A stretch of DNA of 64,000 bases from sequence record NC_054910.1; one strand, 5' to 3'. The position numbers and the translations under genes are program-made. The stretch's first letter is position 1, and the number at the start of each line of letters is the position of its first letter. Source of the DNA: Escherichia phage EcNP1. The notes under the pieces were generated by a model, which had not been told where the DNA came from, made no database searches, and saw only the letters and a program-made list of their open reading frames with translations. Shown one piece after another: positions 6,163 to 58,673 of this stretch.

Positions 6163-6193
6163 CATGGGGCCGCAAGGCCCCAAAGGATTTTAA

Positions 6194-19071: not shown

Positions 19072-19086
19072 TCTTTGACGATTTAA

Positions 19087-19115
19087 GGGACCTTCGGGTC
19101 CCTTTAGTTGTTTTT
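19087..19115 (+). terminator. Intrinsic terminator after gene 23
   Basis: Hairpin GGGACC-TTCG-GGTCCC then TTTAGTTGTTTTT. Confidence 0.75.
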
Positions 19116-20438: not shown

Positions 20439-20444
20439 AACAAA

Positions 20445-20465
20445 GGGACCTTTCGGTCCCTTTTT
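20445..20465. terminator. Bidirectional intrinsic terminator between gene 24 and rnlB
   Basis: Hairpin GGGACC-TTTC-GGTCCC with T-runs on both strands, between convergent genes. Confidence 0.8.
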
Positions 20466-22020: not shown

Positions 22021-22045
22021 AAATGAAGAAAGGGGCCGAAGCCCC
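22021..22045 (-). terminator. Intrinsic terminator after hoc
   Basis: Hairpin GGGGC-TTCG-GCCCC on the minus strand then TTTCTTCATTT. Confidence 0.7.
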
Positions 22046-22051
22046 TTATGA

Positions 22052-23925: not shown

Positions 23926-25437
23926 ATGACTGACATTAAAGTACATTTTTATGATTTTAGTCACGTGAGAATTGATTGTGAAGAAAGTACGTTTCATGAA
24001 CTCCGTGATTTCTTTAGCTTTGAAGCTGAAGGGTATCGTTTTAATCCAAAATACAAATATGGTCACTGGGATGGACGAATCCGTCTTTTAGATTATAATC
24101 GTCTTCTTCCATTCGGCTTAGTCGGGCAAATTAAAAAGTTCTGTGATAACTTTGGCTATAAAGCCTGGATTGACCCACAAATTAACGAAAAAGAAGAATT
24201 ATCAAGAAAAGATTTCGATGAATGGCTTTCTAAGTTAGAAATCTATTCAGGAAATAAAAGAATTGAACCGCATTGGTATCAAAAAGATGCAGTGTTCGAA
24301 GGATTAGTTAATCGTCGTAGAATTCTTAATCTTCCAACATCCGCAGGTAAATCTTTAATTCAAGCTTTACTCGCTCGGTATTATTTGGAAAATTATGAAG
24401 GTAAAATTCTTATCATTGTTCCAACAACTGCTCTGACAACTCAGATGGCTGATGACTTTGTTGACTATCGTTTATTCAGTCATGCAATGATAAAGAAAAT
24501 CGGTGGTGGAGCATCAAAAGATGATAAATATAAAAATGATGCACCGGTCGTTGTTGGTACATGGCAAACTGTAGTAAAACAGCCAAAAGAATGGTTCTCA
24601 CAGTTTGGAATGATGATGAATGATGAATGCCATCTTGCCACAGGAAAAAGTATTTCATCTATCATATCAGGTTTAAATAACTGCATGTTCAAATTTGGTC
24701 TATCAGGTTCATTGCGTGATGGCAAAGCTAATATCATGCAGTATGTTGGAATGTTTGGTGAAATATTTAAACCAGTAACGACTTCTAAATTAATGGAAGA
24801 TGGACAAGTAACTGAGTTAAAAATTAATAGTATTTTTCTTCGCTATCCTGATGAGTTCACTACTAAATTAAAGGGAAAAACTTACCAAGAAGAAATAAAA
24901 ATTATTACTGGGCTCAGTAAAAGAAATAAATGGATCGCTAAATTAGCTATTAAACTTGCACAAAAAGATGAAAACGCTTTTGTCATGTTTAAGCATGTAT
25001 CACATGGTAAAGCTATTTTCGATTTAATTAAAAATGAATACGATAAAGTTTATTACGTATCAGGAGAAGTTGATACCGAAACACGCAACGTAATGAAAAC
25101 CCTAGCTGAAAACGGTAAAGGAATAATTATAGTAGCTAGTTATGGTGTATTTTCTACTGGTATTTCAGTTAAAAATCTGCATCACGTTGTTTTAGCACAC
25201 GGTGTTAAATCTAAAATTATTGTATTGCAAACAATAGGTCGCGTATTACGTAAGCATGGTTCTAAAACAATCGCAACGGTCTGGGACCTCATTGATGATT
25301 GCGGTGTTAAGCCAAAATCTGCTAATACGAAAAAGAAATACGTTCATTTGAACTATCTTTTAAAACACGGCATTGATCGTATTCAGCGCTACGCAGATGA
25401 AAAATTTAATTACGTAATGAAAACAGTTAATTTATAA
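23926..25437 (+). CDS. uvsW: UvsW SF2 DNA helicase
   Basis: 503 aa; Walker A PTSAGKS and DECH box; near-identical to T4 UvsW as recalled; TATAAATA core 30 nt upstream. Confidence 0.95.
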   Translation: MTDIKVHFYDFSHVRIDCEESTFHELRDFFSFEAEGYRFNPKYKYGHWDGRIRLLDYNRLLPFGLVGQIKKFCDNFGYKAWIDPQINEKEELSRKDFDEWLSKLEIYSGNKRIEPHWYQKDAVFEGLVNRRRILNLPTSAGKSLIQALLARYYLENYEGKILIIVPTTALTTQMADDFVDYRLFSHAMIKKIGGGASKDDKYKNDAPVVVGTWQTVVKQPKEWFSQFGMMMNDECHLATGKSISSIISGLNNCMFKFGLSGSLRDGKANIMQYVGMFGEIFKPVTTSKLMEDGQVTELKINSIFLRYPDEFTTKLKGKTYQEEIKIITGLSKRNKWIAKLAIKLAQKDENAFVMFKHVSHGKAIFDLIKNEYDKVYYVSGEVDTETRNVMKTLAENGKGIIIVASYGVFSTGISVKNLHHVVLAHGVKSKIIVLQTIGRVLRKHGSKTIATVWDLIDDCGVKPKSANTKKKYVHLNYLLKHGIDRIQRYADEKFNYVMKTVNL

Positions 25438-25450
25438 GGGCTTCGGCCCT
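25437..25450 (+). terminator. Stem-loop after uvsW (weak terminator candidate)
   Basis: Hairpin AGGGC-TTCG-GCCCT after the uvsW stop; only a short T-run follows. Confidence 0.4.
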
Positions 25451-25462
25451 TTGGAGAAAAAG

Positions 25463-33963: not shown

Positions 33964-33967
33964 CAAT

Positions 33968-33996
33968 GGGGACCTTTCGGTCCCCATATTTTTATT
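33968..33996 (+). terminator. Intrinsic terminator after gene 54
   Basis: Hairpin GGGGACC-TTTC-GGTCCCC then ATATTTTTATTT. Confidence 0.8.
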
Positions 33997-38528: not shown

Positions 38529-38549
38529 AAATTAAAGGCCCGAAGGCCT

Positions 38550-38738
38550 TTAATAATCTAGTGGTAAGAGAGTACGGTATATTTCAAACTTCGGACCTTT
38601 TTCATAGGCATCAAATGTTTCTGTAAATTTATTATAAGCATATGCATCTACAAATTCAAGAACGATTTGTGATACAGAAGTAGAAACATCTCCACCTTCT
38701 TTTTGAGCAACGACAATTGTTTCTAAGTAAGCTTTCAT
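38550..38738 (-). CDS. Small acidic hypothetical protein
   Basis: 62-aa ORF; its start overlaps the gene 30 stop; a hairpin overlaps its own stop. Confidence 0.55.
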   Translation of the reverse strand: MKAYLETIVVAQKEGGDVSTSVSQIVLEFVDAYAYNKFTETFDAYEKGPKFEIYRTLLPLDY

Positions 38739-42429: not shown

Positions 42430-42475
42430 AAACACAGTATTTTCCTCAGTAAGGGGCCGAAGCCCCTGTTTTATT

Positions 42476-43317: not shown

Positions 43318-43346
43318 GAAAATAAAAAAGGACTCCCGAAGGAGTC
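43318..43346 (-). terminator. Intrinsic terminator downstream of the basic small ORF
   Basis: Minus strand hairpin GGACTCC-TTCG-GGAGTCC then TTTTTTATTTT. Confidence 0.75.
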
Positions 43347-43352
43347 CTCAAC

Positions 43353-50038: not shown

Positions 50039-51626
<1,588 letters not shown>

Positions 51627-51648
51627 AATAAAATGGGCCTTGCGGCCC
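51627..51648 (-). terminator. Intrinsic terminator after nrdB, abutting the denA start
   Basis: Minus strand hairpin GGGCC-GCAA-GGCCC then ATTTTATT, directly followed by the denA ATG. Confidence 0.7.
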
Positions 51649-51653
51649 ACTCC

Positions 51654-52823
51654 TTAAAAATATTTTTTAAAACTCATCATAACTTTATCATCAACATCAT
51701 TATCAATCTGTGCAACAAGGTAAGATGACAGTTCTACTTCTTGCGGCGCGGATTGAACATTATCAGAATTAAGATATTCACGAATCCAAGGATACGGATG
51801 TTTAACCGGAGCATCGGTAATTGGGCATGGAAGACCGCACTGTTTCATACGAGATACAGTTAAGTAATCAATAAAGCTCCACATGCTATTTGTATTTAAT
51901 CCAGGAACATCGCCATCTTTAAATAAATGAACTGCCCAGTCTTTTTCTTGGCGGTTAACTTCCATGAAAATATCAACTGCTTCTTGTTCACACTCTTGAG
52001 CAATTTTAACCCATTCATCACCATCTGTGCCAAGTTGAAGTTGACGAATAATATATTGGGTGCCTTTAAGGTGTAGCTGTTCATCACGTGCAATGAACTT
52101 CATAATCTTAGCATTACCTTCCATGATTTCCATGTTTTTATGGAAGTTAAAGGTGCATGCGAAAGATACATAAAAACGAATAGCTTCCAAGGCGTTGATT
52201 ACATGCAAGCAGAGGTAAAGAGATTTCATTAATGCTCGTTTAGTACATTCAACAACTTTGCCTAACTCTTCTTTACGAAATCCTTCTGATAAAATTCCTT
52301 CATAATCTTCAACCGCATTCTGATATTCACGAGTCTTAACTAGAACATCATCATAATAGCGACCAATGGACTCGGCACGTTTCATAATAGCTTTATCTAA
52401 TACAATCTCATCAAATACCTTTGACGGATCAGTATAAAGATTTCGCATGATATGAGTATATGAACGGCTGTGAATAGTTTCACTAAAAGTCCATGTAGCA
52501 ACCCATGTATCAAGACTTGGGTCTGAAATTAATGACATAAGTACAGCAGACGGTGCACGACCCTGAATGCTATCCAAAAGTGATTGATACTTCAGATTAT
52601 TAGTAAAAATATCTTGCTGATACTGAGGAAGCTTGTTAAATTGTGCAGCATCCATCATCAAGTTTACTTCTTCAGGACGCCAGAAAAATGACAACTGCTT
52701 TTCGGTTAAATCTTCAAAAACTTTATGACGTTGAATATCGTAACGCGCAATACCAAGACCTGAACCGAAGAACATAGGTTCTTTTAAAACATCAACTGGA
52801 TTTGTATTAAAAACTGTGCTCAT
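51654..52823 (-). CDS. nrdB: Ribonucleotide reductase small subunit, uninterrupted
   Basis: Single 389-aa ORF from ATG at 52823; no intron. Confidence 0.95.
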   Translation of the reverse strand: MSTVFNTNPVDVLKEPMFFGSGLGIARYDIQRHKVFEDLTEKQLSFFWRPEEVNLMMDAAQFNKLPQYQQDIFTNNLKYQSLLDSIQGRAPSAVLMSLISDPSLDTWVATWTFSETIHSRSYTHIMRNLYTDPSKVFDEIVLDKAIMKRAESIGRYYDDVLVKTREYQNAVEDYEGILSEGFRKEELGKVVECTKRALMKSLYLCLHVINALEAIRFYVSFACTFNFHKNMEIMEGNAKIMKFIARDEQLHLKGTQYIIRQLQLGTDGDEWVKIAQECEQEAVDIFMEVNRQEKDWAVHLFKDGDVPGLNTNSMWSFIDYLTVSRMKQCGLPCPITDAPVKHPYPWIREYLNSDNVQSAPQEVELSSYLVAQIDNDVDDKVMMSFKKYF

Positions 52824-52874
52824 AAATTTTCCGCTTAGTTAATAGATAGTGACTCGTCCGTGAGTCAAATTATA

Positions 52875-55139
52875 TCATAATTTACAGGATGAACAATCTT
52901 CAGCTTTTGGAGTTTCTATTTCATAATCATCAGTACCAGAACCATCACGGGTATTATGATAATAGAAATTTTTTCCGCCAAAATACCAAAAGTACAAAAG
53001 GTCATCAATCATTACAGACATTGGAACCTTTCCTTTTGGAAAAATCTGCGGGTCATAATATGTATTCGCTGAAGCTGATTGACATACCCATTTCAGCATA
53101 ATAGCTACTTGCGTAAGATAAGGTTTATTACCTTTCTTAGCTAATTTCCATGTATAATCATAGAGGTCTATGTTATGTTCAATATTGGGCACGACTTGAT
53201 TAAAGGAACCCTCTTTTGATTCTTTAACCGAGACTGGTCCACGTGGAGGCTCGATACCGTTTGTACTGTTAGAAACTTGGGAAGATGACTCACATGGCAT
53301 AAGTGCTGATAATGTGCTATTACGGATGCCAAAGAGCTTAAGGTCTTCCCGCAGCGACGACCAGTCACAAACGTATTTTGGAGCTGCGATTTGGTCAATC
53401 TTTTTATTGTACCAGTCGATAGGTAATTCGCCTCGAGACCAACGAGTGTCTGAATAATATTCGCAAGGTCCTTTTTCTTTGGCGAGCTTAATGGATGCTT
53501 TGATGAGTCCATACTGTAATCTCTCAAATAGTTCATGTGTTAAATCGTTAGCATCTTCATAAGAAGCAAAGTTACTTGCCAGCCAAGCTGCATAGTTAGT
53601 AACACCTACACCAAGATTTCGACGCTTTTTAGCTTTTTCTGCTTCAGGAACTGGATATCCTTGGTAATCCAAAAGATTATCAAGAGCGCGAACTTGAACT
53701 TCTGCTAATTCATTAATTTTATCTTGGTCTTGCCAATCGAAGTTATCCAACACAAATGCAGATAACGTACACAATCCAATTTCAGCATCAGGGCTATTCA
53801 CATCATTTGTTGGAATAGCAATTTCACAACACAAGTTACTCTGACGAATAGGTGCCTTTTCACGAATAAATGGAGTATAGTTATTCGTATTATCAATGAA
53901 CTGCACATAAATCCTTGCTGTTCCTGAACGTTCAGTCATGAGTAATTCAAACAGTTCACGTGCTTTAATACGCTTTTTACGAATATTAGGGTCTTTTTCT
54001 GCGGCTTCATACAATTCACGGAAACGGTCTTGGTCTTTAAAATAAGAATAATAAAGTTCGCCACCCATTTCATGCGGACTGAACAAAGTAATGTAATCAT
54101 TCTTTCCGAATCGTTCCATCATTAGGTCATTCAGCTGGACGCCATAATCCATATGACGGATACGGTTTTCTTCTACACCTTTGTTATTTTTCAAAACGAG
54201 AAGATTTTCAACTTCCAAATGCCAAATAGGATAATAAGCAGTAGCAGCGCCGCCACGAATTCCACCCTGTGAACATGATTTAACAGCAGTCTGAAAATGT
54301 TTCCAAAAAGGAATAACACCAGTATGACGCACTTCACCTGTGCCAATCTTAGAACCTTCGGCACGAATCATACCAACGTTAATGCCGATTCCAGCTCGTT
54401 TGGAGATATATTCAACAATTGAAGCAGAAGCTTTGTTAATAGACTTCAGCGAATCACCTGCTTCAATAACAACGCATGAACTAAACTGTCGAGTTGGAGT
54501 ACGACATCCAGCCATAATAGGAGTTGGCAGTGAAATCTGTCGAGTAGATACTGCTTCATAAAAACGAATAACATGTTTTAATCTGTCAACAGGTTCATCT
54601 TGATGCAATGCCATTCCAATAGTCATAAATGCAAACTGCGGAGTTTCATAAATTTGACCAGTGGTTTTATCTTTAACGAGATATTTTTCTTTTAATTGCA
54701 TCGCCCCGGAATAAGTAAATTCCATATCCCGCTCGTGCTTAATTTTTGATTCTAAAAATGTAATTTCTTCTGCTGAATATTTTGACAACAGTTCAGGGTC
54801 GTATTTACCTTCATTTACACAGTAAGAAATATGGTCAATAAATGAACGCGGTTCATACTGTCCGTAAACATGCTTACGAAGAGCAAACATTAAACAGCGA
54901 GCGGCTACGTATTGATAATCAGGCTCTTCAACTGAAATAGAATTCGCAGCAGCCTTAATGACAATAGTCTGAATGTCGTCAGTTGTCATTCCATCACGGA
55001 GATATGATTTAATATTTTCATATAATTCATAAGGATCTACAGATGTTCCTTCAGCTGCCCAAGATAAAACTTTAATAATTTTTTGCGGGTAAAAGCTCTG
55101 AGAAACACCACTACTTTTGATAACATTAATTAATTGCAT
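52875..55139 (-). CDS. nrdA: Ribonucleotide reductase large subunit
   Basis: 754 aa, same length as T4 NrdA. Confidence 0.96.
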   Translation of the reverse strand: MQLINVIKSSGVSQSFYPQKIIKVLSWAAEGTSVDPYELYENIKSYLRDGMTTDDIQTIVIKAAANSISVEEPDYQYVAARCLMFALRKHVYGQYEPRSFIDHISYCVNEGKYDPELLSKYSAEEITFLESKIKHERDMEFTYSGAMQLKEKYLVKDKTTGQIYETPQFAFMTIGMALHQDEPVDRLKHVIRFYEAVSTRQISLPTPIMAGCRTPTRQFSSCVVIEAGDSLKSINKASASIVEYISKRAGIGINVGMIRAEGSKIGTGEVRHTGVIPFWKHFQTAVKSCSQGGIRGGAATAYYPIWHLEVENLLVLKNNKGVEENRIRHMDYGVQLNDLMMERFGKNDYITLFSPHEMGGELYYSYFKDQDRFRELYEAAEKDPNIRKKRIKARELFELLMTERSGTARIYVQFIDNTNNYTPFIREKAPIRQSNLCCEIAIPTNDVNSPDAEIGLCTLSAFVLDNFDWQDQDKINELAEVQVRALDNLLDYQGYPVPEAEKAKKRRNLGVGVTNYAAWLASNFASYEDANDLTHELFERLQYGLIKASIKLAKEKGPCEYYSDTRWSRGELPIDWYNKKIDQIAAPKYVCDWSSLREDLKLFGIRNSTLSALMPCESSSQVSNSTNGIEPPRGPVSVKESKEGSFNQVVPNIEHNIDLYDYTWKLAKKGNKPYLTQVAIMLKWVCQSASANTYYDPQIFPKGKVPMSVMIDDLLYFWYFGGKNFYYHNTRDGSGTDDYEIETPKAEDCSSCKL

Positions 55140-58242: not shown

Positions 58243-58643
58243 TACTTTTTGAAAGTTTTTCGCAAAAGTTCAATGATTTCATCTACATTGTTTTCGTCTA
58301 CAATGCAGTGAATTTTTGTTACGCCAGAAATCTTATCTTCGACTTCATCTTCTTCAGAAGTTGGTTCTTTATACTCGCGGAAACAATAAAACTCTTCTTC
58401 ACTAAGTTCAAAATAATCATTACCCATACCATCATCATTATAGATTTCGCCATTAGCACAAATGATTTCAGTTACATAATCAAAGCCATCTAAACTTGAT
58501 ACTGATTTAACTTCAAACCAACCACCATTTTCTTGAATGATGCCGACCATATTAGCATTTGATGAACTAATATCAATGAAAGATTTAATACGATGTGGAT
58601 TTAACTCATATTTTTTGCCGATTTCCATTTTGATTTTCCTCAT
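58242..58643 (-). CDS. Hypothetical acidic protein (frd-32 cluster)
   Basis: 133-aa ORF; alternative ATG at 58628 has SD GAGGA. Start uncertain. Confidence 0.6.
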   Translation of the reverse strand: MRKIKMEIGKKYELNPHRIKSFIDISSSNANMVGIIQENGGWFEVKSVSSLDGFDYVTEIICANGEIYNDDGMGNDYFELSEEEFYCFREYKEPTSEEDEVEDKISGVTKIHCIVDENNVDEIIELLRKTFKK

Positions 58644-58673
58644 TTTGATAGGGGCTTGACAGCCCCTTGATAA

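Follow-up and report, generated by a model that had tools for sequence, protein, structure and literature searches.

How is translation of denA, the gene for endonuclease II (EndoII), initiated when the only Shine-Dalgarno (SD) sequence available to it lies far upstream, on the other side of a stable hairpin? This question is raised by the junction between nrdB and denA in a 64,000-nt stretch of DNA from Escherichia phage EcNP1 (sequence record NC_054910.1), which was analysed as a whole and is referred to below as the window. The segment is that of a Tequatrovirus (T4-like phage), and around nrdB-denA it is 98-99% identical to T4, RB3 and similar phages. The analysis points to a split, hairpin-bridged translation initiation region (TIR), in which folding of the hairpin would be functionally required for denA initiation; we put the probability of this reading at about 60%. 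That EndoII synthesis depends on the folding is what we infer from the comparison of relatives, from the geometry of the junction, and from the behavior of lineages in which the arrangement has been lost or altered.

Architecture of the nrdB-denA junction

A first-pass annotation of this DNA had placed an AAGGAG motif over the nrdB stop codon, a hairpin immediately after it, and the denA start codon at ATG 51626, and each of these elements is present on the minus strand at its claimed coordinates (Table 1). Together with the stop codon, the motif reads UAAGGAG, which is complementary over 7 nt to the 3' end of 16S rRNA. The core of the hairpin is formed by GGGCC (51648-51644) and GGCCC (51639-51635), and is extended to 6 bp by a closing U-A pair (51649/51634). 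The gap between the nrdB stop codon and the denA AUG amounts to 27 nt (51653-51627). Measured along the linear RNA, the last G of the SD sequence is 23 nt from the AUG, while with the hairpin folded this distance shrinks to approximately 7 nt (7-9 nt). Inspection of the UUUUAUU tail revealed no SD-like motif, so that, as had been proposed, the denA ATG has no SD sequence at a normal distance.

Table 1. Features of the nrdB-denA junction in the window.
Feature	Coordinates	Strand	Basis and remarks
nrdB (ribonucleotide reductase small subunit)	51654..52823	minus	389 aa, intronless; open reading frame (ORF) list and annotation of homologous records
nrdB stop codon UAA	51656-51654	minus	sequence; forms part of the denA SD
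UAAGGAG, nrdB stop UAA with overlapping AAGGAG (51655-51650); proposed denA SD	51650..51656	minus	sequence, 16S complementarity
In-frame GTG, denA start in the T4 reference record	51648..51650	minus	T4 annotation; judged non-functional
Hairpin UGGGCC-GCAA-GGCCCA	51634..51649	minus	folding, covariation, RNAalifold
Hairpin 5' arm	51649-51644	minus	
GNRA tetraloop GCAA	51643-51640	minus	
Hairpin 3' arm	51639-51634	minus	
U-rich tail UUUUAUU	51627..51633	minus	7-nt spacer between hairpin base and AUG; also candidate terminator U-tract
denA (endonuclease II, GIY-YIG)	51216..51626	minus	136 aa plus stop; ATG 51626-51624; phrog_1111

These positions suggest how initiation might proceed. UAAGGAG, as the sole SD sequence available to denA, would be too distant for normal initiation in the linear RNA. 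The hairpin, which starts directly 3' of the SD, would loop out 14-16 nt of the intervening 23, and in the folded mRNA the 5' base of the stem would carry the SD while its 3' base would be 7 nt from the AUG, a canonical effective spacing. A 30S subunit could then contact SD and start codon together while the hairpin protrudes, which has been shown experimentally for T4 genes 25 and 38. As a secondary and less certain role, the hairpin and the U-run that follows it may act as a leaky terminator, an attenuator or a 3'-end stabiliser for nrdA-nrdB transcripts, and in this way less of the nuclease than of ribonucleotide reductase would be made. The features by which a split TIR can be recognized in sequence are all found at denA: an SD more than about 15 nt from the start codon, a stem-loop that brings the effective spacing into the functional range of 5-11 nt, no alternative SD, and conservation accompanied by compensatory changes.

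Conservation and covariation of the hairpin

DenA relatives were gathered from IMG/VR, GenBank phages and metagenomes, which yielded approximately 25 distinct nrdB-denA junctions across which DenA identity falls to about 58%; in all, denA occurs in approximately 1300 phage records. Distant DenA-like loci in unrelated contexts (L078-L082 and L114-L121; 34-42% identity) were left out of the comparison. Among these, the DenA-like genes L078-L082 and L116-L119 (40-42% identity) are carried on viral contigs of about 150 kb, in a context unrelated to nrdB, and several stop codons upstream of the matched region mean that their N-terminus and start are not placeable.

All but one of the roughly 25 junctions keep the order of stop codon with AAGG(A/G), hairpin, short tail and ATG. 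In this module, the nrdB stop codon (UAA, once UAG) overlaps or abuts AAGG(A/G), and is followed after 0-2 nt by a G+C stem of 5-7 bp, a U-rich tail of 5-10 nt and the ATG. It is carried by at least nine T4-related groups, and occurs in Tequatrovirus, Mosigvirus, Dhakavirus, Gelderlandvirus, Moonvirus, Kanagawavirus, Bragavirus, TG1-type Yersinia phages and Klebsiella T4-likes; the hairpin is also present in phage mar005P1. A scan of metagenomes for further hairpin-less variants added one stem, L104, to the collection and showed no architecture beyond those already seen.

Within this constant layout, the sequence of the hairpin differs among the junctions. The tetraloop is GCAA or GUAA in the T4 clade and UUCG in most others, with single instances of UUUG, UUAG and CUUGA, and the stems include GGGCC, GGGAC, GGGGC, GGGAGAC, AAGGGC, UAGGGC, CAGGGC, GAGGGC, AGGGCC and GGGAG. 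Despite these differences, a stop codon with AGG, GGA or GAG stands immediately 5' of the stem in all of the approximately 25 hairpin-bearing variants, and no SD was found in the tail of any hairpin-bearing nrdB-denA junction compared. In an alignment of 23 sequences, 88.8% of the cells are paired, and double-sided changes occur in 23 cells, distributed over four of the six base pairs. The corresponding covariation score of 0.442 exceeds that of shuffled alignments (0.192 +/- 0.033; none of 500 reached 0.442), and registers slid relative to the true one scored no higher than 0.257. Furthermore, RNAalifold recovered the same 6-bp stem de novo.

The spacing of the elements is equally informative. 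The linear distance from the GGA core to the AUG ranges from 21 to 28 nt among the relatives and the hairpin length from 12 to 18 nt, yet the effective spacing, that is, the distance minus the hairpin, is 6-10 nt in 23 of 24 variants (mean 8.3, SD 1.7, here the standard deviation), with a single outlier at 14. Spacings of 6-10 nt fall within the canonical range between SD and AUG for initiation in E. coli. A hairpin of free length, joined to its surroundings by single-stranded links that are short and nearly constant, is what would be expected if the folded hairpin brings the SD to the AUG.

The denA start codon

The argument above presupposes that denA starts at ATG 51626, and the T4 reference record (AF158101.6; L001, 1849-2283) annotates the gene otherwise, from a GTG located 3 nt past the nrdB stop codon, giving a product of 144 aa. 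Were this correct, initiation at GTG 51650 would depend on termination-reinitiation coupling, and the hairpin would be part of the denA reading frame. The GTG is indeed in frame, and in Dhakavirus IME08 (L093, NC_014260.1, 501-938) the annotated denA start is likewise an in-frame ATG at the equivalent position.

Comparison of the relatives speaks against this alternative. Two clades alone, that of T4 with GTG and that of Dhakavirus with ATG, have an in-frame start codon at the GTG position; in the others the position reads ACG, AUA, ACA, AAA or another triplet, or the start is out of frame (L009, L013, L025, L030). Lineages without a usable start at this position comprise L008, L009, L013, L014, L018, L020, L021, L022, L025, L029, L030, L034 and L035, and the GTG is thus not the conserved in-frame start, within a few nucleotides of the upstream stop, that stop-start reinitiation calls for. 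In addition, the 24 nt between the two candidate starts do not evolve codon-wise, but by paired substitutions in the stem and by changes in hairpin length between 12 and 18 nt. Finally, the first G of the GTG is also the last base of the SD sequence, which would leave a spacing of zero.

The evidence for the downstream start is of several kinds. Among eight named records, six place the denA start at the conserved ATG, as does phage 107, and apart from T4 and IME08 every record examined does so, with products of 136-138 aa. Met1 and the N-terminal sequence MK(E/D)IA.EYSF are conserved in 14 diverged DenA homologues. The product predicted from the window is 99% identical to the T4 EndoII of PDB entry 2WSH, and both the 2WSH construct and active recombinant EndoII begin with MKEIA. 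Because the N-terminus is conserved, the GTG is not, the intervening 24 nt evolve as a stem, and the GTG overlaps the SD, ATG 51626 is taken as the start. The GTG was rejected on these comparative grounds and is, in our estimation, extremely improbable, while ATG 51626 is supported as the functional start codon. The GTG of the T4 record and the upstream ATG of IME08 are probably gene-calling artefacts, arising where, unlike in all other clades, an upstream start happens to be in frame.

Natural variants without the conserved arrangement

In a few phages, the module has been lost or rearranged. Yersinia phage fHe-Yen9-01 (L027, 1381-1620; KY593455 / NC_055716) possesses neither SD, hairpin nor tail, and the TGA that ends nrdB shares bases with the denA ATG; the module is retained by TG1 and phiR1-RT, the phages closest to it in DenA. 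The nrdB gene of fHe-Yen9-01 ends in ...FKKYL-TGA and resembles E. coli phages at its 3' end (about 80% to VR5), and denA is about 91% identical to that of TG1 and phiR1-RT; the boundary between the two genes has the appearance of a recombination joint. An ATGA overlap links denA to the gene before it in Aeromonas phages 25 and Ah1. Such stop-start coupling joins denA to its upstream gene where the module is missing. The nrdB stop codon is overlapped in the window, too, in this case by the denA SD. There, however, the AUG lies 27 nt past that stop with a stable hairpin between them, and simple overlap coupling is inapplicable.

A different solution is found in Phi1 (Krischvirus), in which denA follows an unrelated ORF and is preceded by a hairpin (GGCGGGA-GAAA-UCCCGCC), a long tail and its own SD, GAGGAAAGGA, beside the ATG; no hairpin follows nrdB in this phage. 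Five small ORFs (225-229) separate nrdB from denA in Phi1 (L083 / L086, EF437941.1, 131000-133000), and several of ORFs 225-228 show an early-promoter-like GTTGACA...TA(A/G)NAT, an embedded stem-loop and a canonical SD. These leaders are consistent with the promoter-stem-loop cassettes described for the phage group to which Phi1 belongs (PMC2839356).

Among the lineages compared, none has a denA hairpin without either an SD adjacent to it on the upstream side or an SD downstream of it. The natural variants fit what a split TIR would predict.

Folding and accessibility of the SD sequence

The core hairpin has a calculated free energy of -10.0 kcal/mol with 5 bp and of -11.6 kcal/mol with 6 bp, and in nearly all relatives the core stem pairs with a probability of approximately 1.0. 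An 81-nt fold reaches a z-score of only -1.98; a fold of a single sequence is weak evidence when taken alone, whereas the comparative evidence, from the alignments, is strong. Disruption of the stem and its compensation were examined in silico. Folding of the leader RNA, a check proposed along with the original annotation, predicts a stable 6-bp core hairpin that is compatible with pairing between the SD and the anti-SD. In a co-fold with the 3' end of 16S rRNA, UAAGGAG pairs with the anti-SD and the 6-bp hairpin persists (-20.9 versus -16.8 kcal/mol).

The same calculations bring up the alternative that the structure is primarily inhibitory, with an extended helix that pairs the U-rich tail with the SD, masks it, and thereby limits expression of a potentially toxic nuclease. 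In the minimum free energy structure of the T4 type, the stem is lengthened over GGAG by G.U and A-U pairs between (A)GGAGU and AUUUU(A), and the predicted probability that the SD is unpaired is 0.18 here and 0.03-0.4 in many relatives. Inhibitory hairpins in the TIR are known for T4 e, soc, 49 and I-TevI (PMC3014915). Yet the extension at denA is weak, and opening it to free the SD costs 4.6 kcal/mol, as compared with -8.5 kcal/mol for the 7-bp duplex of UAAGGAG with the 16S 3' end. Moreover, 11 of 23 relatives do not form the outermost aligned G.U pair, which would cover the SD in T4, and the RNAalifold consensus leaves both SD and tail single-stranded. Unmasking alone would leave the SD at a distance of 23 nt from the AUG as long as the core is not folded, such that bridging would be needed for any expression. 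Inhibition as the principal function of the hairpin is accordingly judged very unlikely, although the denA leader structure could be partly inhibitory.

The predicted occlusion of the SD is one of several points that weigh against a hairpin-bridged initiation region. The relatives share phylogeny, and the cell counts in the covariation analysis overstate the number of independent events. Since the SD overlaps the stop codon, conservation of the UAA is partly trivial. Two lineages, L032 and L033, carry only the weaker UAAGAGAGGG motif as SD. A U-rich leader can recruit ribosomes via protein S1 without an SD, and the conserved U-rich tail alone might drive denA initiation. In addition, a literature search for denA reporter, toeprint, N-terminal or ribosome-profiling results returned none.

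Hairpin-bridged initiation in T4 and in the window

A review of post-transcriptional control in T4 names only genes 38 and 25 as having split TIRs, where a linear spacing of 22 nt becomes 5 nt and one of 27 nt becomes 11 nt, respectively, and leaves denA unmentioned (PMC3014915); the work on gene 25 is that of Nivinskas et al. 1999 and of Malys and Nivinskas 2009, as summarised in PMC3014915. The statement in the first-pass annotation that hairpin-bridged initiation regions are known for other T4 genes is correct in the form of these two examples. No earlier account of a denA split TIR was found in the literature searched, although older and subscription papers may contain one. From its architecture, denA is a probable further member of the class defined by genes 25 and 38.

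Gene 25, which encodes the gp25 baseplate wedge subunit (phrog_261), is also present in the window, and the gene 26-25 junction provides a positive control: at 27078-27045 on the minus strand it reads GAGG-A-CUCAAAGAAUUCUUUGAG-CUAUUGUA-AUG. The whole window was scanned for an SD located 0-3 nt before a hairpin and an ATG 3-10 nt after it that opens an ORF of at least 50 aa. Three sites were returned, namely denA, gene 25 (27047) and an ORF at 58643. At gene 25, GAGG is followed by 1 nt, an 18-nt hairpin, 8 nt and the AUG (d1 = 1, d2 = 8), compared with d1 = 0-1 and d2 = 7-8 at denA.

The third site, at 58626-58667 on the minus strand, consists of CAAGG, the hairpin AGGGGCUGUCAAGCCCCU, 6 nt, and AUG 58643 opening an ORF of 133 aa (phrog_622, function not assigned). 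It was rejected as a third split TIR, as a canonical GAGGA SD precedes the in-frame AUG 58628, 15 nt downstream. The start of this ORF is ambiguous; AUG 58628 is the likelier one, and the site is probably an ordinary one.

Genes 25 and 38 resemble denA to different degrees. In both denA and gene 25, the SD is directly followed by a stem-loop, the AUG comes about 8 nt later, and the arrangement occupies an intercistronic junction and is conserved among relatives. They differ in that the gene 25 stem is A/U-rich, with 7 bp, an AAUU loop and no U-run, and is not terminator-like, whereas at denA a G+C-rich stem carries a GNRA or UUCG tetraloop and is trailed by a U-tail, and the SD shares bases with the stop codon of the preceding gene. 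According to PMC3014915, only close T-even phages have the gene 25 arrangement, while that of denA extends more widely, to Bragavirus (Proteus PM2) and to T4-likes of Klebsiella, Citrobacter, Enterobacter, Salmonella and Yersinia. Conversely, gene 25 is backed by reporter and dimethyl sulfate (DMS) evidence, and denA is known from sequence comparison. Gene 38, which lies outside the window and is compared here through the published numbers (PMC3014915), has a linear distance from SD to AUG of 22 nt, as against 23 nt at denA, and in both cases an intervening hairpin shortens it.

The window also contains a class of stable intergenic tetraloop hairpins of the UUCG, GNRA or GAAA type, for example at 6165-6182, 19085-19104, 20442-20463, 22030-22047, 25436-25451, 33966-33987, 38531-38554, 42452-42467 and 43329-43348. 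Many of them read as hairpins on both strands, and several are accompanied by U-runs. These ordinary T4-type intercistronic hairpins are of the same kind as that of denA, but differ from it in the position of the SD. Where such a hairpin lies directly upstream of a gene of the window, or of denA in Phi1, the SD (AAGGA, GGAG or GAGGAAAGGA) is placed between hairpin and AUG, whereas that of T-even denA is 5' of the hairpin. For example, UGGGGCC-GCAA-GGCCCCA at 6165-6182(+) shares the GCAA loop with the denA hairpin and is nearly identical to it in the stem, yet an SD of its own comes after it, as one does after AAGGGC-UUCG-GCCCUU at 25436-25451(+).

The position of the SD against the stem may have a further consequence. 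RegB with S1 requires approximately 11 nt of single-stranded RNA from GGA onward (PMC1702504). The denA leader has a GGAG (51653-51650), yet only 0-1 nt separate it from the stem and the stretch beyond is base-paired, so this is not a RegB target of the expected form. Since the stretch that RegB/S1 needs single-stranded is paired, the hairpin might shield the SD of this early gene from RegB. The GGAG itself is not conserved, and the relatives have GGAA, GGAU, GGAC or GGU instead. A search of 51300-52000 against Rfam with E values up to 10 gave L20_leader as the best match, with 23.4 bits as compared to a gathering score of 58.7, and all others had E > 2.

The hairpin as a possible terminator

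The first-pass annotation had called the hairpin the nrdB terminator, and the sequence is consistent with such a role. When the stem is limited to Watson-Crick pairs, 6 of the 8 nt following the denA hairpin are T, in keeping with a generic terminator (at least 5 T in 8), and the same holds for 22 of 24 variants. The two others, L032 and L033, keep the hairpin and the SD without a U-run. A consensus terminator scan of the window did not list the denA hairpin, likely because greedy extension of the stem by G.U pairs consumes the T-run.

The U-richness is itself distinctive. The denA tails are 66% U across the relatives, and 72% U in their first 5 nt, while 41 canonical spacers between SD and AUG in the window are 52% A and 31% U, and not one of the 41 has at least 5 T in its last 8 nt. 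Because ordinary spacers are not U-rich, the U-run appears to be selected for. Partial termination or attenuation would be the most obvious cause, with S1 binding or pairing to the SD as candidate alternatives. From its sequence the denA hairpin is thus a plausible leaky intrinsic terminator.

Several observations disfavor a strong or essential one. Besides L032 and L033, these are the Phi1 nrdB, which is not followed by a hairpin, and fHe-Yen9-01, in which the hairpin is missing altogether. Furthermore, the stem begins 5-8 nt past the nrdB stop, and a ribosome terminating at nrdB would, judging from the size of its footprint, cover the 5' arm. Pattern scans inside nrdB gave no match to a late (TATAAATA) or MotA-type promoter, and sigma-70-like matches only at the level of shuffled sequence; with no promoter pattern for denA, the gene appears to need read-through from upstream, and any termination would then be partial or leaky. 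A literature search for T4 3'-end mapping at the nrdB-denA site and for T4 Term-seq or Ribo-seq found nothing relevant. Immediately after the denA stop codon, at 51180-51225 on the minus strand, a MotA-box-like TGCTT and a -10-like TATATT (GATGCTTCCACATGGAGTGTGGTACTATATT) occur together with an inverted repeat, CCACA..TGTGG, and this site is a candidate middle promoter for rnlA.

Leaky termination within the nrd-region gene cluster of T4 has a precedent, in that terminators there can be only 30-50% efficient (PMC2790892). The internal terminator of mobE, like the denA hairpin, is a stem-loop with a 4-nt loop and a U-tract in a polycistronic nrd-region transcript; its 30-50% efficiency was measured, its 3' ends were mapped, and it tunes a potentially harmful downstream nuclease gene (PMC2790892). 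The mobE stem has 9 nt, versus 5-6 bp at denA, and does not lie within a ribosome-binding site, and the putative denA terminator is predicted from sequence. In the window, nrdA and nrdB are adjacent without mobE and nrdB has no intron (52823-52875, 51654-52823), whereas T4 has mobE and an nrdB group I intron with I-TevIII. The spacer between nrdA and nrdB contains a weak hairpin, 52867-52850, which was listed by the terminator scan.

Could the hairpin then be merely a terminator, or a barrier to 3' exonucleases, for nrdA-nrdB, with denA translated from read-through RNA via S1 or re-initiation? The G+C stem, the exceptionally stable tetraloop and a U-run that ordinary spacers lack would all be accounted for, as would the membership of the hairpin in a class of similar intercistronic structures, and T4 does tune downstream genes by leaky terminators (PMC2790892). 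This explanation leaves unexplained, however, why an SD-like purine motif stands 5' of the stem in every lineage and never in the tail, while the order elsewhere in the genome and in Phi1 is hairpin, SD and AUG, and why the effective spacing is constant. The lineages with hairpin and SD but no U-run, the hairpin-free nrdB of Phi1 and fHe-Yen9-01, and the likely position of the 5' arm under a terminating ribosome likewise do not agree with it, and we regard it as unlikely.

The proposal that a single structure serves both purposes is therefore upheld unevenly. Its split ribosome-binding site is supported by the position of the SD, the covariation and the constant spacing, while the terminator part is plausible from the sequence and, if real, leaky. 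A still more elaborate scheme can be drawn, in which the hairpin is an obligate dual or triple switch maintained across the T-even radiation, combining attenuation after nrdB, assembly of the denA ribosome-binding site on read-through RNA, and immunity to RegB, which would set the denA SD apart from all but a few early-gene SDs. Because terminating ribosomes would transiently melt a stem 5-8 nt past the stop codon, translation of nrdB would gate both termination and denA initiation. In this full form, the scheme is quite unlikely.

Implications

If denA is indeed a third hairpin-bridged site, this arrangement would be a recurrent design rather than a curiosity. The denA case would stand out by its much wider range of phages, its ultra-stable GNRA or UUCG tetraloop, and its terminator-like appearance. 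The approximately 25 stems that have been 'mutated' in nature would form a ready set for studying how a helix that separates SD and start codon is accommodated by the 30S subunit. The evidence argues that denA is annotated with the wrong start both in IME08 and in the reference record of T4 (GTG, 144 aa), and that gene callers will misplace starts at such sites. For the phages themselves, the arrangement suggests a route by which expression of a nuclease that degrades host DNA may be held low relative to that of the ribonucleotide reductase genes upstream.

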